Assembly (NCBI RefSeq): GCF_039932285.1
Contig: NZ_JBDTQE010000006.1
Location: 1,582-65,581, forward strand
Reading direction: 5' to 3'
Origin: Flavobacterium sp.
Lineage (GTDB): Bacteria > Bacteroidota > Bacteroidia > Flavobacteriales > Flavobacteriaceae
DNA length: 64,000 nucleotides
The notes beneath the pieces were generated by a model. It did no database searches, was not told the DNA's origin, and was given only the letters and a program-made list of their open reading frames with translations. The stretch's first letter is position 1. Every line of letters begins with the position of its first letter. The position numbers and the translations under genes are program-made. Positions 5,207 to 24,484 of this stretch are shown here, piece by piece.

Positions 5207-6385
5207 TTAATCTGCTAAAAATGTTGGTGATGAATTTGATGGCTTGTTATCGTTGCTAAAGACTGAAGTGCTTTTGTCGTTTTTTAAAACATTTTCGTTT
5301 ACAAAAATTCCAGTATCTCTTTTTCTTCCTATATAATCTAATTGATTTAAAATAGAATAAAGGTTGTCTATTTTTGAAATAAAGTAATTGGTTTGATCTA
5401 CAGTTTCTCTAATGTCAAAAGGTTTATATTTAACATTTATAGCATCTGTAAACAAACGTTCAAAGTCCCCACTTTTTGTATCAGTCCATTCTGAAAAATA
5501 ATTAAATAACATTTCCTTACCGTCACCTGAAAAAGTGTCAAAACAATTTTTTAAGGTTCTAGCAAATCCTACTATATTGCTTAAAATGTCTATGGGTTTT
5601 GTGTTGTAATTTGTCCATTTATTCATTGTAATATGTTTTTCAACATAATTTAATGACTTGTTACAGGCTTCAAGAACCATACTAGCAATTACGTTTTCAT
5701 CTTCTGCGGTGCTTCTAAACTTTATTTTTTGTATGATTTGTACGGAATAGAATTCTATTTGTTTAAAAAACAAATCATAATTTTCAAATAAACTAATTAA
5801 ATTTGAATGACTATTTACAGTTAAGCAAGGTGGAATATAATCTGTTAGAATTTCATAACTATCTGATGATGTTTTAAATTTTGCTATTGGGAATTGTAAA
5901 GCACCAATATTATTTTGATTTACATCACTTTCTATTACAGTTGTAAAAAAATATTTTGACCTCGCGTAAGGAAACCTAGGTGGAGTTTCTAACATATTTT
6001 GTTCTCCAGATGGGATTCTATGATACGGGTCTACGTTTAGAAGCAAGTAATAGTTATTTTCTTTAAAATCAAAATCTTTCAATTCTATCTTTTCAGAAAA
6101 AGAACCTGTTAAATCGGTGATCTCTATTCGTCCTCCAGAAGGAGTTACTGCTTTAAGCATTTTTATGTCGATACTCAACTCATTGTGTGTATCAATAGAA
6201 ATTGAATATTGAAAAGGGCTCGATAAATTAGTGCTTAACAATCCGTAGTTTAAATCGCTGGTTTCAAGATTTCTTGCATCACGAACTAAATCTTCAATAT
6301 TGTCTTGCAATTCAATAAAATGATTTTTATTGATTTTCATTCCTTCAATCCAGTTTACTGGAAAGTGTTTTATGTTTTCTGCCAT
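5207..6385 (-). CDS. tssK: T6SS baseplate subunit TssK
   Basis: N-terminal VNWIEGMKINKNHF motif typical of TssK; T6SS operon context. Confidence 0.8.
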   Translation of the reverse strand: MAENIKHFPVNWIEGMKINKNHFIELQDNIEDLVRDARNLETSDLNYGLLSTNLSSPFQYSISIDTHNELSIDIKMLKAVTPSGGRIEITDLTGSFSEKIELKDFDFKENNYYLLLNVDPYHRIPSGEQNMLETPPRFPYARSKYFFTTVIESDVNQNNIGALQFPIAKFKTSSDSYEILTDYIPPCLTVNSHSNLISLFENYDLFFKQIEFYSVQIIQKIKFRSTAEDENVIASMVLEACNKSLNYVEKHITMNKWTNYNTKPIDILSNIVGFARTLKNCFDTFSGDGKEMLFNYFSEWTDTKSGDFERLFTDAINVKYKPFDIRETVDQTNYFISKIDNLYSILNQLDYIGRKRDTGIFVNENVLKNDKSTSVFSNDNKPSNSSPTFLAD

Positions 6386-6398
6386 ACTTCTAATTTTT

Positions 6399-7262
6399 TT
6401 ATATTCTTTGACAAATTATTGTTTCTCCATCTTTAATATTATTAGTATCTATGGCTAATTCGGGGTCTATATATTCTGCTGAACCAAACCATTTTGGTTT
6501 GGTATGAAAATACCATCCATAGGGTTGCTGTTTTTCATCAAGATGATTAATCTTGCCATTTGGGTTTTTTTCGTTATAATCATTGATGAAATAATAAAAT
6601 AATCGACCAAAATCAAATGCCCTTGGCGCCTTTACTTTAAAATTAATAATGTCTTTATCATTTGATTTTTTTTGAAAAACTAGATTCAAAATAATAACGT
6701 TACGCATCTCTGATGCCTGTGGAGCTGGATATACTGAATTTAGAGGATAAAACCATCTTTTGTGTAACTTGGCAGGAATCGAGATAGCAGTTTCAAATAA
6801 AATGTAACACAAAGTTGGAATTATAAAAAATAACAAGGTAGCTATTAAATAGGTTAAATAGTCTAATTCTCCAAAAAAGCTCGCAATGATTGATATAAAA
6901 GCAGCAATAAATAAGGCTGTTACAGATGAAATTGCTATTTCTGTAAATATTTTTTTCGCTTCAAATTTTTTAAAATAAATTCGAAATAACCTAAAATGAA
7001 TTGCTCCTGTAATTGCAAAATAGACTTGAAATGCTACAAATCGTTGCGAAACTATTACATCTTTTAGATTATATAAAATGCTAGAAAATACCACAAAGAC
7101 TAATACTTGAGCGAGTATGTAATAAAAATATTTTTTCTTTTCTTGTTTTAACTTTGGGGTTTTAGCACTTATTAACATTGTAAGCATAACTGCTATTGCT
7201 ATAATTATAAGTGCATAAATTAATGCTTCGCCTCCATTTAGTTTCGGTAAAAAACGTCTCAT
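6399..7262 (-). CDS. tssN: T6SSiii membrane protein TssN
   Basis: About five TM helices followed by a soluble C-terminal domain (KRWFYP, FGRLFYYFINDYNEKNP); 287 aa. Confidence 0.8.
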   Translation of the reverse strand: MRRFLPKLNGGEALIYALIIIAIAVMLTMLISAKTPKLKQEKKKYFYYILAQVLVFVVFSSILYNLKDVIVSQRFVAFQVYFAITGAIHFRLFRIYFKKFEAKKIFTEIAISSVTALFIAAFISIIASFFGELDYLTYLIATLLFFIIPTLCYILFETAISIPAKLHKRWFYPLNSVYPAPQASEMRNVIILNLVFQKKSNDKDIINFKVKAPRAFDFGRLFYYFINDYNEKNPNGKINHLDEKQQPYGWYFHTKPKWFGSAEYIDPELAIDTNNIKDGETIICQRI

Positions 7263-11975: not shown

Positions 11976-12365
11976 ATGTCATTTAAATCTAAATTAAGCG
12001 TTGGGGGAAAAGAGCTTAACATTTTAAACGCTTCGTATGAGCTTTTTCAAGAAATTGACGCTACAGGTCGTCCATCTTCTGTAACAAGAGGCGGGTCAAT
12101 CACTGTTACAGTAGAATCTACAGGAGATTCATTCTTTTTTGAGTGGATGACTGATAATTTTGACCGAAAAGATGGGTCAATTTTATATGTAAAGCGTGAT
12201 ACTGATGCAAAATTAAAAGAAGTAAAATTTACAGAAGCCTATATGGTTAAGTACAGAGAAAACTTTGATGCTTCTGGAAACAATCCATTAACAGAAACTT
12301 TTACAATTTCTGCACGTGAAATGACAATCGGAGAAGGTAAACTTGTTAATGAATGGACATCATAA
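11976..12365 (+). CDS. tssD: T6SS tube protein TssD/Hcp, copy 1
   Basis: 129 aa with DATGRPSS..RGG, FFFEWM and FTEAYMVKYRENF motifs of the Bacteroidota TssD family. Confidence 0.9.
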   Translation: MSFKSKLSVGGKELNILNASYELFQEIDATGRPSSVTRGGSITVTVESTGDSFFFEWMTDNFDRKDGSILYVKRDTDAKLKEVKFTEAYMVKYRENFDASGNNPLTETFTISAREMTIGEGKLVNEWTS

Positions 12366-12471: not shown

Positions 12472-12867
12472 ATGTCTTTTTTAGCAAAGCTTGAAATTGA
12501 TGGAGAAACAATGAATGTCTTAGAGTTCAATTGTTCTATACGACAAGAATTGGATAAAAGCGGAAAGCCTTCTGCAGATCCTAATGGAGGAAATATTAGA
12601 CTGTTAGTTGAATCTACAAAAAGCACTTTGTTATTTGATTGGATGGTAAGTCATTCTCAAACTAAAAATGGTAAAGTTACTTTTTATAGAAGAGATGCTG
12701 TTTCTAAAATGAGAGAACTCGAATTTAGCGAAGCCTATTGTGCAAGTTATGACGAAATATTTATAGCAGACAACAATACACCAATGCAAATTCAATTTTC
12801 TATTTCAGCTAAGGAAATAGCTATGAATGGTTCGAAATTGACTAGAAACTGGCCTTTGAAATTCTAA
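12472..12867 (+). CDS. tssD: T6SS tube protein TssD/Hcp, divergent copy 2
   Basis: 131 aa with DKSGKPSADPNGG, LFDWM and FSEAYCASYDE; same family as copy 1 but clearly diverged. Confidence 0.88.
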   Translation: MSFLAKLEIDGETMNVLEFNCSIRQELDKSGKPSADPNGGNIRLLVESTKSTLLFDWMVSHSQTKNGKVTFYRRDAVSKMRELEFSEAYCASYDEIFIADNNTPMQIQFSISAKEIAMNGSKLTRNWPLKF

Positions 12868-12873
12868 TTTGTT

Positions 12874-13806
12874 ATGGACGAACTTGAATCTAATTTCTTT
12901 CTGTCATTAAGTATTCATTTTGGCGGGGGTAAATCCTATTTTAGTGGCACTGCCGGTATGGGCGTGAGTAAAAAACTTGGATCTATCGATCCTGGTGTAA
13001 ACTTAGCTGTAAATTTTTATAACGGAGGAATAGGAACGTTAGAAAATTCAAATAAAGTTCATTTTGATACTGTTTTAACCGGGAAATTAACCGCAGGAGC
13101 AGGTAAAGGAAATCCTATGGATATTTACCCATTACATATAGATTCTGGAACAGGACTTGTAGATAATTATAAGTATTCAGCAACATTAGGAACCAATTTT
13201 ATTCTTAATAATAGTGGCAGAAATCAGCAGGTAGGATTTCTTCAGTTAAGGGTAGAAGATTTTAGTTTTCAAACTTATAACGATTTTGGGGGTTTCAAGA
13301 AAATAGGAATTAGCGACGGTTATGATCGCTGGTGGACTGGAGGCGGAAACATAACTTTAGGAGCTAAAAATAGTAATTATCAGTTTGTAGTTGCAAGTGA
13401 TGTTTTTACCGCAGATACTGATTCTGAAAATAGATTAGACAGAGAAAATGCTGATAATAATTTAGCAGAGTTTAACAAGAATAATCCAAACGGAGGATTT
13501 GAGAAATTCAAAAAAAGAATTACTGGATATACACCAACTAAAGCTTCAGAAGTAGATGAAACTTTCGTAAAAGAAATGCGAAATGACACATGGACTCCTA
13601 ATCAACACTCTTTTAATCTAAATCAAGGAAGAACATCTTTCGGATTAAAAACGCCACAAGGGTCATTTAGAGCAAATCATCTTGGAAGTAATGATATGTG
13701 GAGCCAAGATATGATTCATAGAACTATAAATTTTCATTTAATTCCTTCGGAACGTGAAAATCAATGGGAATTTCAAGGGGCTTCAAATATAAATAGTGAG
13801 TTCTAA
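12874..13806 (+). CDS. Putative T6SS effector, Ntox23-like / LpxR-like beta-rich domain
   Basis: No signal peptide; directly after tssD2 and overlapping a lipoprotein gene by one base; ND, DGYDRWWTG and QDMIH motifs. Confidence 0.65.
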   Translation: MDELESNFFLSLSIHFGGGKSYFSGTAGMGVSKKLGSIDPGVNLAVNFYNGGIGTLENSNKVHFDTVLTGKLTAGAGKGNPMDIYPLHIDSGTGLVDNYKYSATLGTNFILNNSGRNQQVGFLQLRVEDFSFQTYNDFGGFKKIGISDGYDRWWTGGGNITLGAKNSNYQFVVASDVFTADTDSENRLDRENADNNLAEFNKNNPNGGFEKFKKRITGYTPTKASEVDETFVKEMRNDTWTPNQHSFNLNQGRTSFGLKTPQGSFRANHLGSNDMWSQDMIHRTINFHLIPSERENQWEFQGASNINSEF

Positions 13807-14378
13807 TGAAAAAAATGTTTTGGAAAACATTATTACCAGTTCTTTTTCTACAATCTTGCGGTCCAAAATTTTATGTAAAAAATGATTTCACGTTTTTTGA
13901 TAAAAATTTCGAATTAGATGAAAGTTCTTTGTTAAAAACAAATGGAATTTATGTATTAGATAATATTTGGTCTAGCAAAAATGGAGGAGAAATTTTACCT
14001 ATTAAGAGTAATAAAATATATCAATTTTACAAAACAGGACAATCAAATTTTTGGTTTGATAATGGTTTAAAATCTAATGATGATTATCTGTTGTTTTTAG
14101 AAAAAGAAAATATTAAAAGTAGTAATAGTCAAAGTACTTTATTTCAAGGTTATTATAAAATCAATAAAAATCAAATTATCATTCAAAATGTAAATACTTC
14201 CTTGAAAAGATTTAATTATACCTACGGTTTTATTGAATCAAATAAACTCATTATTGTTAAAGAGGATATTATTGAAGGAAATGGAAAATTTGACAACAAA
14301 TATTTCACAAATACCTATAAAGAAACTTATATATTTAAGGAACTAAAAACCACGAAAAAAATAATTCCAAATTGGTAA
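13806..14378 (+). CDS. Putative immunity lipoprotein
   Basis: Lipobox LFLQSC; coupled to the upstream effector gene. Confidence 0.65.
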   Translation: MKKMFWKTLLPVLFLQSCGPKFYVKNDFTFFDKNFELDESSLLKTNGIYVLDNIWSSKNGGEILPIKSNKIYQFYKTGQSNFWFDNGLKSNDDYLLFLEKENIKSSNSQSTLFQGYYKINKNQIIIQNVNTSLKRFNYTYGFIESNKLIIVKEDIIEGNGKFDNKYFTNTYKETYIFKELKTTKKIIPNW

Positions 14379-14410: not shown

Positions 14411-15121
14411 ATGAATAAAATAACCATCATAGTTTTAATTATTGTTACACTTACCAGTAGTAAGAGTGTTTGTCAAAATACTAGTATACAGCAATTTGAT
14501 GATGTTTATAAAAAAGAAATTTTATTAGAAAACAATGCGCTTTCTGAAAGAATTTTAAAATTCCCTCAAGATATAATTAGGTTAAATGAGGAAACAAAAA
14601 TAGCATTACGGAAAAAAGATTTCACAGCAGCTTACGAACTTGGTGTTAAAATAGACAAAATGATGCCTAACAATGAAGATGTGAAAAATTTTTTAGGTAA
14701 GATGTCTTCTAAATTAGGTAATAGTTCAAAGGCTCTATTCTATTTCGACGAAGCTTTAAGAATTAACCCATTAGCAAAGTGGATTTATATAAATAAGAGT
14801 ATTGCACTCTCTGAAATTGGAAAAAATAGTGAAGCGCTACAAACTATAAATATATTAATAGAAAAATATCCCAACTGGTTTATCGCTTATAATATAGAAG
14901 GAGCACTATTTTCAAATATTAATCAAAAAGACAAAGCAATTTTAGCCTATTCAAAGGCTATAGAACTTGAACCCAATAGTGCTCAAGTACTAACAAATAG
15001 AGGTAATGTATATTTAGAAAAGAATGAAATTGATAAAGCAAAAGCAGATTTTGAAAAAGCATTATCTATTCAGCCTAATTATGAAATTGCAAATCAGAGA
15101 ATTAATTTTCTAACAAAATAA
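14411..15121 (+). CDS. Exported tetratricopeptide-repeat protein
   Basis: Signal peptide followed by several TPR motifs (AILAYSKAIELEPNSAQVLTNRGNVY, AKADFEKALSIQP). Confidence 0.8.
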   Translation: MNKITIIVLIIVTLTSSKSVCQNTSIQQFDDVYKKEILLENNALSERILKFPQDIIRLNEETKIALRKKDFTAAYELGVKIDKMMPNNEDVKNFLGKMSSKLGNSSKALFYFDEALRINPLAKWIYINKSIALSEIGKNSEALQTINILIEKYPNWFIAYNIEGALFSNINQKDKAILAYSKAIELEPNSAQVLTNRGNVYLEKNEIDKAKADFEKALSIQPNYEIANQRINFLTK

Positions 15122-15188: not shown

Positions 15189-17036
15189 ATGCCAATTAGT
15201 ACAAAAATTTCGATACAAATAGACGGGGAAGATTTGACAAGATTTTCTAAATTGGTTATCAATCAAAAAGTGCATACACACCACAAATTTTCACTTTTGC
15301 AACCCCTTCCAAAAGAGTTTATAGACCAGGCGATAAATAAAACACAAGGTTATATAGGGAAGACTATTGTCATAAAAATAGAGCCAAATAACATGCGTAC
15401 AAATTCCCCGTTAAGTTTTATTGGTGTTATTACCGAAGCACAAATGGTACGTGCTTCAGGAGCCGCTGGAGGAATCATTATCAACGGATATAGTCCAACT
15501 ATCTTGATGGAAGGAGCGCCCAATATAAAATCATTTAGTACACAATCCCTTTCTGATATTGTTAAGGAAGTTGCAGGAAAGTATAAAGAAAAAAGCGTTC
15601 AACCCTCAGTTTCTATTCAAAATGATACCACCTTACCGTATACAGTTCAATACGGAGAAAGTGATTATGGATTTTTAGCTAGAATGGCACAAAAAAAAGG
15701 ACAATGGTTTTATTATAATGGAGAAGAATCTTTTTTTGGTAAACCAAAATCAAAAACATTCACTTTAGAGTATGGACGCTCTTTGCATAGTTTTAATATC
15801 GAAATGAGAGCCAAGCCACTTGGTTTCGAGTATATAGGATATGATGCCAGTACTGCAGAAACACAAAAAGCCAATTCGACAGAAATAAATTACCAAGCGC
15901 AAGGTTATGCCAAGTCTGTTTTTGATTCTTCAAAAAAAATGTTTCCAGAAGTCTCTACTTTGTTGTATAACAATGCTATAGAAGAAGGAAATTCACGAAC
16001 ACACTTAGTAGATAGAGTAACCACTCAACTGCAATCACGGGCAGCCGATTTAGTTACCGCCAAAGGCGAAAGTGACGAAACAGGATTGAGAATAGGTGAT
16101 GTGGTATCTATACATGAACCTGCTTTTTCAATGACAGGCAATGCAATAGATGGACTAAAAGAGCAAAATTTCGGGAACTATATCCTTACCGATATTACCC
16201 ATGTATGTGATGAGTCTGGATCATATCACAACACCTTCGATGCAGTACCAGAAAGCGTGCTGTGTCCACCTTACGGTGATGTTTACAGTATTCCAACTGC
16301 AAACACACAACCCGCAAAAGTAGTAGACAATAATGACCCAGCAGGATTAGGAAGAGTAAAAGTAACTTTTGCATGGCAAGAAGGTAAAGATACACCATGG
16401 TTAAGAATGATAAATCCCCATGCAGGAGGAGGTAAAGGAATGTATTTCATTCCAGAAATAGGTGAAGAAGTATTGGTTGCTTTTGAAAATGGTAATGCCG
16501 AAAAACCTTTTATTCTTGGATCAATGTATAACGGAGCAGAAAGTTCTAGTTATGCAAGCTCTGGTAATGACCAAAAAGTCATTCAAACCCGTTCAGGGAC
16601 TAAAATCATTATGAATGATGCCGAAGGAAGTGTTTTTATTGAAGATCCTTCAGGTAACACTTGGATCATGGATGGTAAAGGCAATATTAATGTGAATGCA
16701 CCTAATGATATTACTATGAACGCAGGAGGAAGTATTAGTATGACGGCAGGACAAAACATTAATTCATCTGCGAGTTTAAATATTGTTGAAAGCGCTGGGG
16801 TAGACAAATCATCTTCAGTGGGAATGATGCATAATATGTTTGTAGGAGGAAACAGCATGGTAAATGTTGTAGGTAATTTAACCGAATATATTACAGGTAA
16901 TATGGAATCACATACCGAAAAAGATAGAGTAACTAACAGTAAAAAAGGCATAGAGTCTACCACTGAAGGAGAAATGGCGAAACATTCCAAAAAAGAAGTA
17001 AAACTCAATAGCGCTGAAAAGTCAAAACTTTTTTAA
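15189..17036 (+). CDS. tssI: T6SS spike protein VgrG/TssI
   Basis: QYGESDYGFLARMA motif, gp5 OB-fold (DPAGLGRVKV, PEIGEEVLVAFENG) and a C-terminal beta-helix. Confidence 0.93.
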   Translation: MPISTKISIQIDGEDLTRFSKLVINQKVHTHHKFSLLQPLPKEFIDQAINKTQGYIGKTIVIKIEPNNMRTNSPLSFIGVITEAQMVRASGAAGGIIINGYSPTILMEGAPNIKSFSTQSLSDIVKEVAGKYKEKSVQPSVSIQNDTTLPYTVQYGESDYGFLARMAQKKGQWFYYNGEESFFGKPKSKTFTLEYGRSLHSFNIEMRAKPLGFEYIGYDASTAETQKANSTEINYQAQGYAKSVFDSSKKMFPEVSTLLYNNAIEEGNSRTHLVDRVTTQLQSRAADLVTAKGESDETGLRIGDVVSIHEPAFSMTGNAIDGLKEQNFGNYILTDITHVCDESGSYHNTFDAVPESVLCPPYGDVYSIPTANTQPAKVVDNNDPAGLGRVKVTFAWQEGKDTPWLRMINPHAGGGKGMYFIPEIGEEVLVAFENGNAEKPFILGSMYNGAESSSYASSGNDQKVIQTRSGTKIIMNDAEGSVFIEDPSGNTWIMDGKGNINVNAPNDITMNAGGSISMTAGQNINSSASLNIVESAGVDKSSSVGMMHNMFVGGNSMVNVVGNLTEYITGNMESHTEKDRVTNSKKGIESTTEGEMAKHSKKEVKLNSAEKSKLF

Positions 17037-17038
17037 GA

Positions 17039-18367
17039 ATGACAAGGATTAGAAATGTACAAGGTAAAATAACCGAAACCACTGGAGGCAATGATATTTC
17101 TTATGCTCAAGAAAGTATTGTGCTTAATTCTCATAAAGCTATAAGTGTAAAAGGAGAAGAAAAAGGAGTGAGTTTCCAGAAACCAAAAAGTTATAAACCT
17201 AAAACTGATTTACTTGTAACAAAAGTTGAAGGGCCATATGATGAAAAAGATAAACTTGTAAAAGTTGTCAAAAAAGGATTTTTTTATACATATAAGGCAA
17301 GTTTGTCTAGAGAACCAAAACCCGAAGAAATAAAAATGTTAAGATGGGCATCAAAAAATGATGACGGAAAAACTAATGAATTATCAGGTGTTTCAACACA
17401 CAATGCATTAGTAAAAGATAAAATAATTATTGGAATTGCAGTAAATCAAGATTGTGATAAGGTTAGAATCTATGCTTATTATAAAAAAGAAGATGAAAAA
17501 GCAAGTGTTGTAACAGATGTGGAAAATATTGAAATTTTATTGATTGTAGGTACAGAACAACATTCTCAAACTTATGGTAATAAACTAATGTTTCCAGCAC
17601 AAGCTGTTAGAGAGGTTAGGGAAAGTTATAAACACAATAAAAAAGTAACTATTGTTATTTTCACTGATGGATTTAATGCTTTAGAATTAAGTACAATAGA
17701 AAAAGATTCCAAAAAAATAAACAGTTTAGTAAATTTTAAAAAAATTAATTCCATAACACAATTAATAAGCTATATAAATAATGGAGAAGGTTCAAATACT
17801 AGGGATAAAGTTAAAGTAGGTATTGTTAAAATCTTTTCTCACGGTTTACCCAGTATTCTTGATTTTGGGTTAGATGGGAGTAATAGCAAGTCACAAAGAT
17901 TTGAAATTTCTCATATAGCAAAGTTAAAAGTTGACTCATTTACCAAAAAAGCAGAAATTTATTCTTACGCATGTAGGACAGGTAATGCCGATGATAGACT
18001 TGTAGCCTATAGCGATAATTATGAATATGAGCAAGATTGGGTTAAGATTGTAAAACCTGAGGAGAGTTTGGCTCAAAAATTAAGTGATCATTTAGATGCT
18101 AGAGTACATGCCTTTTTAAGAAGAAGTAATTATACATCTACTTGGGTAGAGGGCGGTGATGAAAGTTACAAAAAGAAATATATAACAATAGAAGATGAAG
18201 AGGTTAGTAATCCTATAAATCCTAAAGACTGGTTTAGAAAAGGTTGGGATGATGCTTTGTGGAATCCTGAAGGCGGATATTCAAAACCTGCATCTGGAAA
18301 GACCCCTGGAGGACTTTTGCCTTCAGGAATGTATGTGTTTGAGAAAGGTAAAAAACCAAGTAAATAA
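17039..18367 (+). CDS. Putative VgrG-associated effector with a C-terminal His/Cys (caspase-haemoglobinase-like) domain
   Basis: Starts 2 nt after vgrG; no signal peptide; FSHG and YACRTG motifs; followed by a membrane protein gene. Confidence 0.6.
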   Translation: MTRIRNVQGKITETTGGNDISYAQESIVLNSHKAISVKGEEKGVSFQKPKSYKPKTDLLVTKVEGPYDEKDKLVKVVKKGFFYTYKASLSREPKPEEIKMLRWASKNDDGKTNELSGVSTHNALVKDKIIIGIAVNQDCDKVRIYAYYKKEDEKASVVTDVENIEILLIVGTEQHSQTYGNKLMFPAQAVREVRESYKHNKKVTIVIFTDGFNALELSTIEKDSKKINSLVNFKKINSITQLISYINNGEGSNTRDKVKVGIVKIFSHGLPSILDFGLDGSNSKSQRFEISHIAKLKVDSFTKKAEIYSYACRTGNADDRLVAYSDNYEYEQDWVKIVKPEESLAQKLSDHLDARVHAFLRRSNYTSTWVEGGDESYKKKYITIEDEEVSNPINPKDWFRKGWDDALWNPEGGYSKPASGKTPGGLLPSGMYVFEKGKKPSK

Positions 18368-18369
18368 TT

Positions 18370-18798
18370 ATGAAAAAACTAAATATATATAAGATTTTTT
18401 TTACCATTCTGTTAGTTTACGTTTTGACATTCATTCATACTTATTTAAGTATGAATGAATATTCAAACAATTCATCTTCTGCTTGTTTTGGATGTTCATA
18501 TATTGAAGAAATACTAAGATATAGTTTTATTTCTTTGTTTCTTATTCCAATACTGATTATTGCAAATAGGGTTAAAACAACCAATAAAACTAAAATAATC
18601 TTACTGACATTCTTTTTTATCATATTTTTATTTGTAGTAAACACTAGTCTTTTTGATGCAAGAGTTGCTTCTTGGAGTACTTATACTAATGTTGAATTAT
18701 ATATTTCAGTGTTTAGAAAAATGATTATTTCTGGATCTTTTTTTGGACTTATTTTTTATTTTTATTTGAAGTTTTTTTATTTAAAGTCTAACTATTGA
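18370..18798 (+). CDS. Putative membrane immunity protein
   Basis: 142 aa with 3-4 hydrophobic helices and a CxxC loop (SACFGCSY); starts 2 nt after the effector. Confidence 0.55.
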   Translation: MKKLNIYKIFFTILLVYVLTFIHTYLSMNEYSNNSSSACFGCSYIEEILRYSFISLFLIPILIIANRVKTTNKTKIILLTFFFIIFLFVVNTSLFDARVASWSTYTNVELYISVFRKMIISGSFFGLIFYFYLKFFYLKSNY

Positions 18799-18808
18799 TT
18801 CTTTAATT

Positions 18809-19390
18809 TTGAAAAAAATTATATTTATAACAACAGTAATTATAGTACTTTTTTTTATTTTAAAAATTGTCAAAGAAATCAACTGGAATTCAAAACATGA
18901 AGTAGGAGAGATACTCGATAATTATAATGATGTAAAAGTATATTACAATGGTGGAGTAAGTAATACTGAAGGAAGAAATATGACTAAAGACGGCTACAAT
19001 ATTGGCATGAAATATCAGTGTGTCGAATTTGTAAAACGATACTATTATGAACATTTTAATCATAAAATGCCTGACACATATGGCAATGCCAAAGACTTTT
19101 TTGCCAAAGGTGTTAAAGATGGAGAAATGAATACTAAAAGAGACCTTTTGCAATATGTTAATCCTAGTAAAGTCAAGCCAAAAGTAGATGATATTATTAT
19201 TTTTGATAAATCAATATTAAATTCTTACGGTCATGTAGCCATTGTTTCCAAAGTGGAAAATAATTATATTGAAATTGTTCAACAAAATCCAGGTCCTTTT
19301 AGAAACTCAAGAGATACTATTATGCTGAAAGTAAATAATAACTTATGGTTATTAGATAATGACAGAATTCTTGGCAGGTTAAGTAAGTGA
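18809..19390 (+). CDS. CHAP-domain amidase with an N-terminal signal/anchor
   Basis: YQCVEFVKRYY (Cys), YGHVAIV (His) and QQN motifs; hydrophobic N-terminus; TTG start. Confidence 0.85.
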   Translation: MKKIIFITTVIIVLFFILKIVKEINWNSKHEVGEILDNYNDVKVYYNGGVSNTEGRNMTKDGYNIGMKYQCVEFVKRYYYEHFNHKMPDTYGNAKDFFAKGVKDGEMNTKRDLLQYVNPSKVKPKVDDIIIFDKSILNSYGHVAIVSKVENNYIEIVQQNPGPFRNSRDTIMLKVNNNLWLLDNDRILGRLSK

Positions 19391-20444: not shown

Positions 20445-20921
20445 ATGGCAGAAAAACATATAGTGTGCCACGGAGCAATTTGCATGTGCAATTTTGGTGC
20501 AACACCAGACAAGTTAGTGGTAAAGTCCCATAAGAAGGAATTTATCAATGATAAGAACGGGAGCAAAAAATTAATTGCTTCAGACAAAGAACTTGGACCA
20601 ACCTTCGAGAAAAACACCTTTGGACCCTGTCAGAAACAACCTATGGGCAATAGTTACAAACCTTGCCAGGCGGTAGTAACAAAGTGGAGCGGATTTTATG
20701 AAAAAGTAATCCTTGAAAACAAAGGGAAAATACTATTAGAAGATGCAAAAGCAACCTGTCCAATAGGTGGTTCAGATTGTATAAAAATTACTTTTCACGG
20801 ACAAGTAAATGCACCAGAGGCAAGTAGCGCAAAAAATGCCAACCCAGAAATTATGTCAGCACTTAATCCAATGGTCGATATGGAGGAATTTGAAGACCAA
20901 GACGCACCTTATTACAGTTAA
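20445..20921 (+). CDS. DUF4280 PAAR-like spike tip protein
   Basis: VCHGAICMCNFG, FGPCQKQ, KPCQAVVTKW and ATCPIGG Cys pattern of DUF4280. Confidence 0.88.
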   Translation: MAEKHIVCHGAICMCNFGATPDKLVVKSHKKEFINDKNGSKKLIASDKELGPTFEKNTFGPCQKQPMGNSYKPCQAVVTKWSGFYEKVILENKGKILLEDAKATCPIGGSDCIKITFHGQVNAPEASSAKNANPEIMSALNPMVDMEEFEDQDAPYYS

Positions 20922-20923
20922 TT

Positions 20924-23590
20924 ATGAAAGGAATAGCAAAAATTAAAGGTCCTAAAAACCCTATCGTTGGGAAAGATGCTGTTTATGAAGTAGTAGAGTT
21001 TCATAAAGGAACCGTAGTCGTGAATCCAAATACTATAAAGTGGAAAATTTTTAAGAAAAAAGACAATCATTGGGTTGAGGCCAAAGGAAATGAAAAAACA
21101 GGAAAAAAAGTAACATTTAACTTTTCCCAACATTCTTACGGTAAGGACGTATTAGTAGAAGCTTATTTATTTGAGCCTGAAATAAAATCACCTCCAGGAA
21201 TGATTGTAAAACCAGTAATGGGCGAAAGAAAACTACTCAAAGTAGAGATCAAAAATGCCGATGGTGGTGCATTAACTAAGAAGCCCAAGTATGGCGAAAG
21301 CATCATGGTGCAAGCCACTACCGAAAACATGTTAGGCGAAAACCTAAAAATGAGCATATGGGAACGCGACACACTTACAGACGAAGGTCACGATCCTAAG
21401 GGAAATACAAAATTATGGGATGGTAATGTCAAAATTAAAAATGATGGGATTGCCAAAGAAAAAGTAGTTTTAACACCAGGTATGGCAATGTTAGCCAATA
21501 AAAGTTTGATGGAAGGCGGCGAGCACGAGTACTACTTATTAGTAGAAGCCGAAAAAAAAGCCAAAATATCAAATACGGTTGCAGTACAAAATACGGAGAT
21601 AGTATTAAGTCCTAATGTTCCTAAAAAATCTGTTCCAGCACCAACACCAAAACCACAAGAACCTTCAATGCTTGAGCAAATTGAGCTAAAAATTAAAGAT
21701 CTTATAGGTTGGGACAGTAAACCACCAGGAGGGAATAATAAAGCAGTTGTTGAGGATGGAAAAACCCCTAAGGTAGAAGGTATTATTACTGCCTATTTTG
21801 CTAAGGAAGAATTTACAAAAGAAGGTTCAGAAACTGCGGGGCAATATAAATACAAATTTCAAAGTAGTAATACTAATATTGACAAAGACAAGGTAGCAGG
21901 AATCATTAAAAAAAGGGTTGATATAGATGTAAAAGTTGATAAAAAGTATTCCAAACATGAGGATATTAAAAATGCACTAACAATAACTACATACAAAAAA
22001 GGAGATTTTATTTCTTTTAATTTATATAAATTAGAAGCTAATTTTGTAAAAATAACAAATGCTCCTTTAGAAGAAGTGTTATACGTTGTCGTAAATACAT
22101 ATTTATTAGATGGAAAAGAAGTTACTATTGAAATAAAAGAAAAAGAAGTAATTTTGGTTGGTGCTGATGCAAATTTACCTGTGTTAGAAGGAAAAGAAAA
22201 TGGAAGTGAAATTACAATATTGAAAACAAAAGTAGAAAAAGGAATTGCCAAAGTAAAAATAAAAATTCGCCCTAAGACAGATGAAACATTAGCTACTTGG
22301 AAAGAAAAACTAACTGGAATAAAAGACGGAACCTACAAGTATAAATTTGTCAATAATAATACCACTACTACATCTGAACAAAAGAAAATTGCAGCTAATG
22401 CTATTGCTAATAAAATAAAAGACACACTTGCTGGAAAGAAAAAATTTACAAAAGTAGATGCTATTGAAAAATCTTTAACAAAGTCAGTATATAACAAAGA
22501 CGAGGAAATTACTTTTGATGTATATAAAAGTGTTATAGGAAATCTATGGTTAAACGCGGAATGTCAAGGTGACACTAAAAAGCATAAAGGAGAGTTTTTG
22601 AAAAGGGATGGAGAGTATTTTGTGATTGGTCAAAAGTGTGAATGCGAAGCAAGAATAAAAGCTTTTATGAGAATGTTACGTATTGGAGAAGGAACAGAAG
22701 GAGATGGAGGTTACACAACTCAATATAGCGGAACACAATTTAGCGATATGAGCAAGCATCCTGAAAATGTTATTACAGCTGGCAACTATTCGTCTTCTGC
22801 TGCAGGAGCTTATCAAATCATGAGGTATACATGGTGGTGGTTAGGTGGGGAAAAATTGACTGAAAACAATACAAAAGCTGGTGTTTATGAAGAAAATCAT
22901 GATTATATTAAAAAGTATAGCATTCCTGATTTTACTCAAGAATCTCAAGACAAATTATGCGTCATTATATTAAAGCATAAAAGACCAGGAAGTATTGAGT
23001 TAATAACGTCTAATAAAACGAAGGAAGCATTAGAAAAATATGGTAGTTATGAATGGGCTAGTTTGCCACCAGGTAGATATGGACAGCCAGCACAAACAAT
23101 GGAAAATGCCTTGTCTAAATATGAAAAATTTTTAAAAGAAGAATTAGAAGGAAAAACGAATTTATATTTAAAAAATGGATTTGCCAAAGAATTTAATATT
23201 GTTTGTAATTGTAAAAAAGCATCAGCAAAGACAGGATATGATATAGATGCAGCAGTAACGTATATTGAATCTCATGCAGAGGCTAGTTCAACTTCTGCTT
23301 GTGCAAAATATGTTAGACAGGCTGTTGAAGCTGGAGGACTTACGTCAAATGCTTCACCAAGAAATGCACTAAACTATTTTACAATTCTAAAAGATTTAGG
23401 TTTTACGGAACTTCAAACAACTAGCTATATAAAAGGAGATATTGTAGTTTTTGACGGAGTCGAAGGTCATCAATACGGACACATTGCTATGTGGACAGGT
23501 ACGCAATGGATTTCTGATTTTAAACAAAATAGTATAATCGTAAACACCGCATACAATAATGGTCAAAGTTCAATTTTTAGATGGCAATAA
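20924..23590 (+). CDS. T6SS peptidoglycan effector: lambda-lysozyme-like (GH104) domain plus C-terminal NlpC/P60-CHAP-like amidase
   Basis: LRIGEGT, SSAAGAYQ, DFTQESQD and EWASLP..YGQ match lambda R lysozyme motifs. CAKYVRQA, GDIVVF, YGHIAM and WISDFKQ form a Cys/His amidase. Confidence 0.8.
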   Translation: MKGIAKIKGPKNPIVGKDAVYEVVEFHKGTVVVNPNTIKWKIFKKKDNHWVEAKGNEKTGKKVTFNFSQHSYGKDVLVEAYLFEPEIKSPPGMIVKPVMGERKLLKVEIKNADGGALTKKPKYGESIMVQATTENMLGENLKMSIWERDTLTDEGHDPKGNTKLWDGNVKIKNDGIAKEKVVLTPGMAMLANKSLMEGGEHEYYLLVEAEKKAKISNTVAVQNTEIVLSPNVPKKSVPAPTPKPQEPSMLEQIELKIKDLIGWDSKPPGGNNKAVVEDGKTPKVEGIITAYFAKEEFTKEGSETAGQYKYKFQSSNTNIDKDKVAGIIKKRVDIDVKVDKKYSKHEDIKNALTITTYKKGDFISFNLYKLEANFVKITNAPLEEVLYVVVNTYLLDGKEVTIEIKEKEVILVGADANLPVLEGKENGSEITILKTKVEKGIAKVKIKIRPKTDETLATWKEKLTGIKDGTYKYKFVNNNTTTTSEQKKIAANAIANKIKDTLAGKKKFTKVDAIEKSLTKSVYNKDEEITFDVYKSVIGNLWLNAECQGDTKKHKGEFLKRDGEYFVIGQKCECEARIKAFMRMLRIGEGTEGDGGYTTQYSGTQFSDMSKHPENVITAGNYSSSAAGAYQIMRYTWWWLGGEKLTENNTKAGVYEENHDYIKKYSIPDFTQESQDKLCVIILKHKRPGSIELITSNKTKEALEKYGSYEWASLPPGRYGQPAQTMENALSKYEKFLKEELEGKTNLYLKNGFAKEFNIVCNCKKASAKTGYDIDAAVTYIESHAEASSTSACAKYVRQAVEAGGLTSNASPRNALNYFTILKDLGFTELQTTSYIKGDIVVFDGVEGHQYGHIAMWTGTQWISDFKQNSIIVNTAYNNGQSSIFRWQ

Positions 23591-23599
23591 ACAATAATT

Positions 23600-24484
23600 A
23601 TGAAAAAAGCAGCACTATTTTTATTTATAATAATAACACAATCTTGTTTTAAAAAAACAGATAACGTAGTTAAAACAGATGATCAAGTTTTAAAAGCAAC
23701 TACAAATGCTATTGAATTGGTTGAAGTTAGTGATTCAGTAGCTAAAGATTTGAAATCTTTTTATACATCATACATTTCAGAAAACGCCAAAAATGTGGTA
23801 GATAGAAGCTTTTTAAAAGAGTTAAAAAATAAATATGTAACACAAAGTTTTTTAAACAAACTTCAAAAATTAGAATTAGATTATGATCCTTTCGTTAATG
23901 CACAAGATTATAATTCCGAATGGATAAAAAATTTAGGAATAATTAAAGATAATTCAAAAGAAAATACCTATAACGTAATTATTACAGATAATGGTGTAAG
24001 AACTAATATTTTATTAGTTCTTAAAAAAGAACAAAATCAGTATAAAATTGACGATATAGCTAATTTGCCTAATAATACAATTGTTGCTGATAAAATCGAA
24101 AATTACTCGCAAGAAGAAGTTACTGGTATATGGAAGACAGTTTGTCAAGCTAATAAAACTGCTTTATTAGCTAATGATTCTTCACATGGTTATCTTGATG
24201 TTTATATTAATAATGATTATGCTAGAGTTGCTGTAGAAATAGTCAATAATACTGATGTAAAATACTCTGTTCTTACTGGTATCACTAGATACAATAAGTT
24301 TGTTAATTGGCTTTATATATCAAATGACAGTATAGTTTGTAAAGTTAAAAGAACAAATGAAAATGAACTTGAATTAGAATGGCTAGGTTTCTATAACAAG
24401 AAAACCAAAAAGAGAGAAATGGTCAAAAATCCATTTAATAATGAGATTAAAACTAATTTAGTTGAATTAAGAAAATGTCAATAA
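23600..24484 (+). CDS. Immunity lipoprotein with a DUF3828-like N-terminal domain and a second beta domain
   Basis: Lipobox ITQSC; FYTSY...KYVT...LDYDPFVNAQD is typical of DUF3828; directly after the effector. Confidence 0.7.
   Translation: MKKAALFLFIIITQSCFKKTDNVVKTDDQVLKATTNAIELVEVSDSVAKDLKSFYTSYISENAKNVVDRSFLKELKNKYVTQSFLNKLQKLELDYDPFVNAQDYNSEWIKNLGIIKDNSKENTYNVIITDNGVRTNILLVLKKEQNQYKIDDIANLPNNTIVADKIENYSQEEVTGIWKTVCQANKTALLANDSSHGYLDVYINNDYARVAVEIVNNTDVKYSVLTGITRYNKFVNWLYISNDSIVCKVKRTNENELELEWLGFYNKKTKKREMVKNPFNNEIKTNLVELRKCQ

Follow-up and report, generated by a model that had tools for sequence, protein, structure and literature searches.

We describe here a 310-residue protein encoded in a 64,000-nucleotide stretch of a Flavobacterium sp. 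genome (assembly GCF_039932285.1, contig NZ_JBDTQE010000006.1, positions 1,582 to 65,581 of the forward strand), to which we refer as the window and from whose first letter all positions are counted. The window includes a type VI secretion system (T6SS) cluster of the Bacteroidota type, T6SS-iii, and the open reading frame (ORF) of the protein, hereafter the effector, lies inside this cluster together with a second Hcp gene. Family membership, predicted fold, best structural match, motif alignment, conservation and synteny were computed, and they lead us to a reading that we hold to be probable, though with reservations: the effector would be a T6SS cargo toxin that forms a membrane-type beta-barrel in the target envelope, acts there as a lipid acyl-ester hydrolase with a Ca2+/His site like the one in LpxR, a lipid A deacylase, and is blocked in kin cells by a lipoprotein encoded directly behind it.

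Results

The effector gene and its family

The effector matches the Pfam model of the Ntox23 family (PF15528) with 40.4 bits, at a gathering cut-off of 26.2 and an E-value of 4.4e-10, over residues 41–209, the only part of a domain of about 310 residues that the model spans. Ntox23 was described by Zhang et al (2012) as an all-beta family with ND, DxxR and H motifs, occurring in Bacteroidetes with links to RHS and TcdB/TcaC proteins, and no activity was named for it (PMC3482391); in the literature searched, it has remained a toxin domain with no assigned fold or activity since 2012. The effector shares with this family the profile match, the ND, DxxR and H motifs in a mostly-beta model, and relatives that reside in toxin modules. 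A preliminary description of this DNA, made from the letters alone, had characterised Ntox23 as all-beta with ND, DxxR and His motifs and no known activity, in agreement with the original publication.

The same description had placed the ORF behind the second Hcp gene, without a signal peptide and coupled to a lipoprotein gene, and this arrangement holds. Hcp2 ends at 12867, 7 bases ahead of the effector ATG, which rules out an N-terminal extension of the ORF, and the close homologs of the effector all begin with MDELE or MNELD, so none of them carries a signal peptide. At its other end, the TAA stop of the effector shares one base, 13806, with the ATG of the lipoprotein gene, whose product starts with a signal sequence ending in LFLQSC.

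Predicted fold and conserved residues

AlphaFold2, supplied with an alignment of 47 sequences, folds the full-length effector into 12 strands with a predicted local distance difference test (pLDDT) score of 90 and a predicted template modelling (pTM) score of 0.87. As modelled, the effector is a predicted 12-stranded beta-barrel of the outer-membrane type. The connections at the barrel end that bears the termini are short (4, 12, 2, 7 and 2 residues) and those at the opposite end are long (4, 13, 5, 16, 71 and 25 residues), an asymmetry in the model that is typical of outer-membrane proteins, and every invariant polar residue is located at the long-loop end. When the full-length model was searched against the PDB with Foldseek, all 19 matches with an E-value of at most 1e-3 were outer-membrane barrels; matches of this model include the beta-domains of invasin and intimin (template modelling (TM) scores of 0.45/0.55), OmpM1, FapF, OccD, CdiB and OmpU. 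The hydrophobicity of the strands is compatible with a membrane barrel but is not decisive.

The effector ends in a phenylalanine (Phe310, codon 13801–13803), a feature found in 49 of the 68 members of the T6SS-cargo clade compared with 14 of 110 other relatives. This C-terminal Phe resembles the outer-membrane signal that is recognised by the beta-barrel assembly machinery (BAM), although the residues preceding it fit only partly, which leaves the resemblance ambiguous.

A script located the four motifs listed in Table 1 at the residues named in the preliminary description. Across 187 relatives, conservation reaches 98% for N136, 99% for D137, 99% for D151, 94% for R152, 94% for T155, 95% for T179, and 97% each for N250, Q278 and H282; the other positions conserved at 90–99% in this set are G54, D65, G75, Q118, D148, G156 and G157. 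N136-D137, D148/D151-R152 and H282 are invariant across 47 homologs. The motifs are therefore not a chance occurrence. In the model, Q278 and H282 are borne on a single helix, residues 272–284.

Comparison with LpxR

The Ca2+ ion of LpxR is bound by N9, D10 and T34, while H122 serves as the base and sits within a helix (residues 110–126) of extracellular loop L3 (10.1101/309096). In the Yersinia enzyme, each of the mutations N9A, D10A, S34A, Q118A and H122A abolishes activity (PMC3486919). In E. coli, the action of LpxR on hexa-acyl lipid A yields m/z 1360 (PMC3486919). The numbering of T34, Q118 and H122, which the preliminary description had given, agrees with the sequence of the Salmonella structure 3FID, where the Q118/H122 region reads GQEVQNRAHRIIG.

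The placement of these residues on the barrel is alike in the two proteins. The ND motif closes strand 1 in LpxR and strand 7 (residues 130–136) in the effector, the threonine opens strand 2 in LpxR and, as T155, strand 8 in the effector, and QxxxH lies on a helix that follows strand 5 in LpxR and strand 11 in the effector, so that the spacing of the motifs counted in strands is identical. What differs is the location of the motif block along the chain: the effector has six strands ahead of it and LpxR has six or seven behind it, and the ND motif stands at 51% of the length in Ntox23 vs 10% in LpxR. Only the C-terminal half of the effector is therefore expected to be LpxR-like in linear order. 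The loop 180–250 occupies the position of LpxR loop L2, and its helical insert has no counterpart in LpxR and is missing or far shorter in many distant relatives of the effector.

Since the full-length Foldseek search returned generic barrels only, we considered a permutation and modelled residues 128–310 alone, a segment that contains all the motifs. The fragment was predicted with a pLDDT of 83.7 and with its secondary structure unchanged from the full model, and among 350,542 PDB chains its first Foldseek match is 3fid_A, Salmonella LpxR (probability 0.96, E-value 0.026, TM 0.40 over 201 columns). The runner-up is about 10 times poorer (E-value 0.29, probability 0.23), and the best other membrane barrels, OprB, OmpF and NanC, are about 100 times poorer (E-values of 2.2–2.7). 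The E-value for 3FID is modest, yet this entry had been named by the hypothesis beforehand. The structural comparison that had been suggested, an AlphaFold model searched with Foldseek for likeness to 3FID, thus gave the expected answer for the catalytic half and generic barrels only for the whole chain.

For a comparison of sequence profiles, we built an LpxR profile from true LpxR homologs of related Flavobacterium genomes, fetched with the Pfam LpxR model (PF09982). This model detects such genes in 10 of 31 related Flavobacteriales genomes (among them G001, G003, G008, G011, G012, G015 and G017; loci L001–L009), and the Flavobacterium homologs match 3FID with an E-value of 7.6e-15 and with T34, Q118 and H122 aligned. 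The profile is shallow, with 3.3 effective sequences (Neff), because the homolog matches listed were 120 near-identical Flavobacterium proteins. In the hhalign alignment of the Ntox23 and LpxR profiles, F-Q-T-Y-N-D pairs with F-I-S-D-N-D, D-R-W-W-T-G-G with D-K-Y-Y-T-N-G of the Flavobacterium LpxR homologs, V-F-T-A with V-Y-N-P, and S-Q-D-M-I-H with T-Q-R-S-F-H. This profile pairing makes N136/D137, T155 and Q278/H282 the proposed equivalents of N9/D10, T34 and Q118/H122 of LpxR.

In native order the two profiles align with a score of 25.0 (P 0.014). Permuting the toxin profile at residues 84–129 raises the score to 30.1–30.4 (P 0.002), with 30.4 reached at residue 127, whereas cuts at 152–272 give 22.2–23.6. 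Reversed LpxR profiles score 14–16, and LpxR profiles shuffled in 12-column blocks score 17–18 ± 2, with maxima of 22.4 and 26.0. When the halves are aligned separately, the C-terminal half of the toxin against the N-terminal half of LpxR scores 28.5 (P 6e-4; block-shuffled 17.3 ± 2.7), and the other three combinations score 10.6–12.9. The half-to-half results indicate a catalytic half that is either a relative of LpxR or a close mimic of it, and they uphold the earlier observation that the motifs and their order match those of LpxR. A strict circular permutation of the whole barrel is unproven, as the N-terminal half scores at the shuffled level and permuting lifts the score only from 25.0 to 30.4.

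A motif pattern shared by the two families was also constructed post hoc, in a strict and a loose form. Among the 3,180 open frames of the source genome, the strict form has one match and the loose form two, and the loose form is found in 168 of 198 Ntox23 relatives and in 128 of 129 LpxR proteins. A search of NCBIfam with the effector gave no LpxR match.

Relatives of the effector

The effector has 219 relatives in a searched set of 1.84 billion representative proteins, and its close homologs, 77 in number, are mainly from Flavobacterium. The relatives are of three kinds. Some, as the effector itself, are stand-alone proteins without a signal peptide that are encoded beside Hcp. Others are C-terminal domains of RHS-type carriers, such as the RHS-type pre-toxin fusions P0072, P0093 and P0132; the fusion of Ntox23 relatives to RHS, SpvB and TcdB carriers marks the domain as a toxin domain. 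In the metagenomic protein P0147, a carrier of 3,309 residues with SpvB, TcdB, FG-GAP and RHS parts, an Ntox23-like barrel domain forms the C-terminus (residues 3059–3230). The barrel is thus also the cargo of a cocoon, which implies delivery in an unfolded state. The third kind, about half of the distant set, consists of stand-alone proteins of about 310–340 residues with a typical signal peptide.

Two relatives of this third kind, P0075 (L011, 6001–8018) and P0077 (L016, 574–2556), are encoded outside T6SS clusters, and each is directly followed by a gene for a lipoprotein of about 325 residues (P0344 and P0346, respectively). These two lipoproteins are weakly related to each other (E-value 0.001). 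Homology between them and the lipoprotein of the window is unproven (BLAST E-values of 0.12–0.65; hhalign P 0.019).

The conserved module and the lipoprotein

Besides the window, 22 genomes, mostly of Flavobacterium but also of Moheibacter and Apibacter, carry a close homolog of the toxin. In about 18 of these 22, the full gene order TssC-Hcp1-Hcp2-toxin-lipoprotein-TPR-VgrG is kept, and the remaining loci are cut off or one member short. Identity to the window proteins ranges from 82 to 95% for TssC, from 58 to 85% for Hcp1, which has the same location throughout, from 56 to 85% for Hcp2, from 48 to 84% for the toxin, and from 36 to 69% for the lipoprotein, the fastest-evolving member of the module. 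The position of the toxin within a T6SS cluster beside hcp and vgrG, with an adjoining fast-evolving partner, is that of an effector-immunity pair.

Hcp2 is only 38% identical to Hcp1 of the same genome, and in each of the 20 loci with enough upstream DNA an ortholog of Hcp2 immediately precedes the toxin gene. Of 30 sampled relatives, one has any homolog, none has a close toxin homolog, and five have an Hcp, with an identity to Hcp2 that nowhere exceeds 48%. Minor Hcp paralogs of Bacteroidales carry specific effectors, and the conformation of the cargo changes to fit the Hcp pore (PMC13035841). The co-occurrence of Hcp2 with the toxin fits such a dedicated carrier, and by analogy we infer that Hcp2 is the carrier or chaperone of this toxin.

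The lipoprotein follows the toxin in 19 of the 22 close-homolog loci. Its lipobox cysteine, Cys18, is invariant in 20 homologs and a C-terminal PNW is kept, and searches of Pfam, NCBIfam and the PDB gave no match to a family or structure. One of its UniRef homologs is labelled 'LPS export ABC transporter p...', a label without Pfam support. An orphan homolog with 45% identity is present in the gammaproteobacterium Nitrincola (L017, 6001–6597), between coaBC and radC, in a locus without toxin or T6SS genes. The orphan has a GC content of 32% compared with 50–52% in its flanks, it is flanked on both sides by a direct repeat of about 75 bp (about 5830–5905 and 6715–6795), and its lipobox, LSGC with Ser as the next residue, is of the proteobacterial kind. 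It looks as though a prey lineage has captured an immunity gene across phyla. Under the Lol sorting rule as usually applied, the Ser at +2 would direct the Nitrincola protein to the outer membrane, on its periplasmic face. Conserved synteny and this horizontally acquired orphan add to the earlier proposal that the lipoprotein of the window is the immunity partner, and on these sequence features we regard it as the putative immunity protein of the toxin.

The TPR protein follows the lipoprotein in 20 of the 22 loci, with 34–45% identity, and may serve in immunity as a second factor, or else as an adaptor or chaperone.

Table 1. Positions in the window of the effector, its parts and motifs, and the T6SS genes around it
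Feature	Position	Strand	Remarks
Ntox23-family effector, 310 aa	12874..13806	+	PF15528, E 4.4e-10
Residues 1–127, six barrel strands (predicted)	12874..13254	+	strands 4–17, 22–33, 38–49, 63–83, 96–112, 118–127
Residues 128–310, LpxR-like catalytic half (predicted)	13255..13803	+	six strands, helical insert, catalytic helix
N136-D137	13279..13284	+	end of strand 7; proposed equivalent of LpxR Ca2+ ligands N9/D10
D148-G-Y-D151-R152-W-W-T155-G-G	13315..13344	+	loop and first part of strand 8; T155 would correspond to LpxR T34
D176-V-F-T179	13399..13410	+	end of strand 9; aligns with I/V-Y-N/S-P closing LpxR strand 3
Residues 180–250, loop of about 70 residues with helical insert	13411..13623	+	helices 187–203, 209–218, 229–236, 242–245
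Q278-D-M-I-H282-R-T-I	13705..13728	+	helix 272–284 after strand 11; proposed equivalent of LpxR Q118/H122 (L3 helix), H282 as proposed general base
Hcp1 (TssD), main tube protein	11976..12365	+	PF17642 TssD, E 1.1e-47
Hcp2 (TssD2), divergent Hcp paralog	12472..12867	+	PF17642, E 1.6e-45
Lipoprotein, 190 aa, putative immunity protein	13806..14378	+	start overlaps effector stop
TPR protein, 236 aa, signal sequence	14411..15121	+	TPR_1, E 2.6e-23
VgrG (TssI) spike, downstream module boundary	15189..17036	+	Phage_base_V, E 1.4e-24; Phage_GPD, E 1.4e-16
T6SS genes of the plus strand		+	PKD-domain protein (TssP-like), TssB, TssC, two Hcp, effector, lipoprotein, TPR, VgrG
T6SS genes of the minus strand		-	TssE (gp25-like), ClpV, TssO, TssN, NlpC/P60 protein

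Two further gene groups lie downstream in the window. Directly after VgrG, at 17039..19390, are genes for a 442-residue protein without a family match, a hydrophobic 142-residue protein with several predicted membrane segments, and a protein that combines a CHAP domain with a hydrophobic stretch at its N-terminus; together they may be a second, VgrG-linked effector-immunity set. At 20445..24484, a DUF4280 (PAAR-like) gene is followed by one for an 888-residue protein with a weak C-terminal match to Amidase_5, a family of peptidoglycan hydrolases, and then by a DUF3828 gene; these are probably a PAAR-linked cell-wall effector and its immunity protein.

Discussion

How would the effector act? 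In the mechanism that we propose, catalysis, Ca2+ dependence, substrate, site of action, loading by Hcp2 and immunity are inferred from the computed features. The effector would be made in the cytoplasm without a signal peptide, as antibacterial cargo of the Bacteroidota T6SS-iii, and would be carried, probably in a non-native conformation, by the Hcp2 paralog encoded just upstream. Fired by the T6SS into the envelope of a neighbouring Gram-negative cell, it would fold there into a 12-stranded membrane-type beta-barrel, and the long-loop rim of its C-terminal half would rebuild the LpxR active site. In this site N136, D137 and T155 would hold Ca2+ and polarise the ester carbonyl, whereas H282 would activate water with the aid of Q278, which lies on the loop helix. 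Ester-linked acyl chains would thereby be stripped from an envelope lipid, either the acyloxyacyl group of lipid A or a phospholipid, and the outer membrane would be damaged; sister cells would be protected by the periplasm-facing lipoprotein.

Several observations weigh against this mechanism. On the side of sequence, the effector gives no match to the Pfam LpxR model at E-values up to 1, the whole source genome has no LpxR match either with this model or with a custom LpxR hidden Markov model (HMM) run over all frames, and the PDB yields no match to the effector by single sequence or by profile. The hhalign probabilities are low (3–29%), and the six-stranded N-terminal half of the toxin scores 12.9 against the C-terminal half of LpxR, equal to the shuffled mean of 12.9. 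On the side of structure, 3FID is not among the 50 listed Foldseek matches of the full-length model, and the match of the fragment is marginal in absolute terms, in E-value and TM as well as in its root-mean-square deviation of 7.2 Å and its 11% identity, with the aligned range of LpxR unspecified. The presumed lipid-facing side of several strands is just moderately hydrophobic. There is also a difficulty of function: LpxR activity is tolerated by the bacteria that produce it, so that the removal of acyl chains from lipid A may not suffice for toxicity, and a broader phospholipase A activity or a very high activity may be needed to kill. Finally, the mechanism requires a 34-kDa barrel to travel in Hcp and to enter a target membrane.

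Could the barrel be a hydrolase with another target? A barrel scaffold that hydrolyses a non-lipid component of the envelope, such as peptidoglycan, a lipoprotein or another protein, and that resembles LpxR by convergence or through a shared scaffold, is in our view unlikely but deserves consideration. It would sit well with the weak sequence signal, whose hhalign probability is at most 29%, with a barrel of which one half is unrelated to LpxR, and with the invariant residues D148, D151, R152, R116/N117/Q118 and N250, which have no established LpxR counterpart. It accounts less easily for the agreement of the strand-counted motif spacing with LpxR, for LpxR being the top structural match, and for the seven-residue pattern D-[KR]-[YW]-[YW]-T-x-G that Flavobacterium LpxR homologs share with the effector.

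We also find it rather improbable that the effector kills without catalysis, as a membrane-inserting barrel that forms a pore or disturbs the membrane and in which the residues shared with LpxR serve the structure or the binding of a ligand. Pore-forming T6SS effectors exist, and the full-length model does resemble channels and secretion barrels of 12–18 strands, such as the invasin and intimin beta-domains, OmpG, FapF and OccD. However, pore formers rarely keep invariant Asn, Asp, Asp, Arg, Thr, Gln and His residues at one rim, as seen here across 187 diverse relatives, the search with the catalytic half puts LpxR on top rather than channels, and the rim residues align with five LpxR residues that are essential by mutagenesis (PMC3486919).

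As a further alternative, barrel, lipoprotein and TPR protein might be structural parts of the Flavobacterium T6SS-iii that are specific to the clade and reside in the outer membrane, rather than a toxin with its immunity protein, which we regard as highly improbable. The three genes do occupy a constant position between hcp and vgrG in some 18 further genomes, and Flavobacteriales often have no recognisable TssO, TssQ or TssR (PMC10781749). However, a barrel without a signal peptide has no Sec route to the outer membrane of its producer, related domains form the C-terminal cargo of polymorphic toxins of the RHS/TcdB type, an orphan of the lipoprotein is present in a Nitrincola locus without toxin or T6SS genes, and any homolog is found in only one of the 30 sampled relatives although five of them have Hcp.

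The proposed LpxR-like toxin can be compared with several known systems. With LpxR (PF09982; 3FID) it shares a 12-stranded outer-membrane-type barrel, predicted in the case of the effector, in which ND closes a strand, aromatic-Thr-x-Gly opens the following one, and QxxxH[RH] is borne by a loop helix that comes four strands later. It differs from LpxR in that its catalytic half is C-terminal instead of N-terminal and its other six strands are unrelated in sequence, in an L2-equivalent loop of about 70 residues with the helical insert, in lacking a signal peptide and a Pfam match, and in its extra invariant residues D148, D151, R152, R116-Q118 and N250. In addition, LpxR remodels the lipid A of its own cell, whereas the effector would be delivered as a weapon by the T6SS, and relatives of it by RHS carriers. 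We conclude that the effector probably works like LpxR though it is not a member of the Pfam LpxR family. The suggestion of an LpxR-like enzyme therefore stands as regards the motif order and the top match to 3FID, and has to be supplemented by the predicted outer-membrane-type barrel fold and amended as regards the permuted order of the halves and membership of the LpxR family. The present copy of Ntox23 is a stand-alone protein beside Hcp, and about half of its distant relatives are stand-alone proteins with signal peptides, not toxin fusions.

Among envelope lipases, the T6SS effectors Tle1–5 attack envelope lipids and are encoded with adjacent periplasmic or lipoprotein Tli immunity proteins. 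A T6SS-delivered esterase with an adjacent envelope immunity gene is what we propose here as well, yet Tle1–5 are soluble enzymes of the alpha/beta-hydrolase or phospholipase D type that use Ser or HxKxxxxD, while the effector is a predicted membrane barrel with a proposed His and Ca2+ chemistry reminiscent of phospholipase A2. OMPLA (PldA) is a 12-stranded outer-membrane barrel and a Ca2+ acyl-ester hydrolase that damages the envelope if uncontrolled. It differs from the effector family in its Ser-His-Asn triad and its active dimer; the effector family has no conserved serine nucleophile, and OMPLA is not among the listed Foldseek matches of either the full-length model or the model of residues 128–310. 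As to delivery, the Bacteroidales T6SS-iii effector Bte1, which works with an Hcp2-Hcp3 heterohexamer, is likewise encoded beside a co-evolving minor Hcp paralog (PMC13035841, PMC13213661); here, the cargo would be a 34-kDa predicted membrane barrel, only two Hcp genes are present, and loading by Hcp2 is putative. The literature searched contains no description of a T6SS effector that is LpxR-like or that deacylates lipid A.

A more far-reaching picture is conceivable, which we put forward tentatively and consider doubtful as a whole. Ntox23 toxins may be outer-membrane barrel enzymes turned into weapons, delivered unfolded by Hcp2 or by RHS/Tc-type cocoons and folding into the outer membrane of the prey from inside, alone or with the help of the prey BAM, where they would deacylate lipid A or other outer-membrane lipids through a permuted LpxR site. 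Immunity would then be provided at the periplasmic face, by a gene of enough value for a gammaproteobacterium to have taken it over from a Flavobacterium, and the relatives with signal peptides would be undescribed permuted LpxR-like outer-membrane enzymes of Bacteroidota.

In conclusion, if the effector is indeed an LpxR-like barrel toxin, the Ntox23 family would gain a testable chemistry, the hydrolysis of acyl esters by His and Ca2+, and five point mutants with one mass-spectrometry read-out could settle the question of activity. A membrane beta-barrel would join the known folds of T6SS and RHS effectors, and one would then ask by what means Hcp carries such a protein and how it is inserted into a foreign envelope. 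The finding would further mean that a permuted relative of LpxR is widespread in Bacteroidota, and that the gene conferring immunity to it has moved across phyla.

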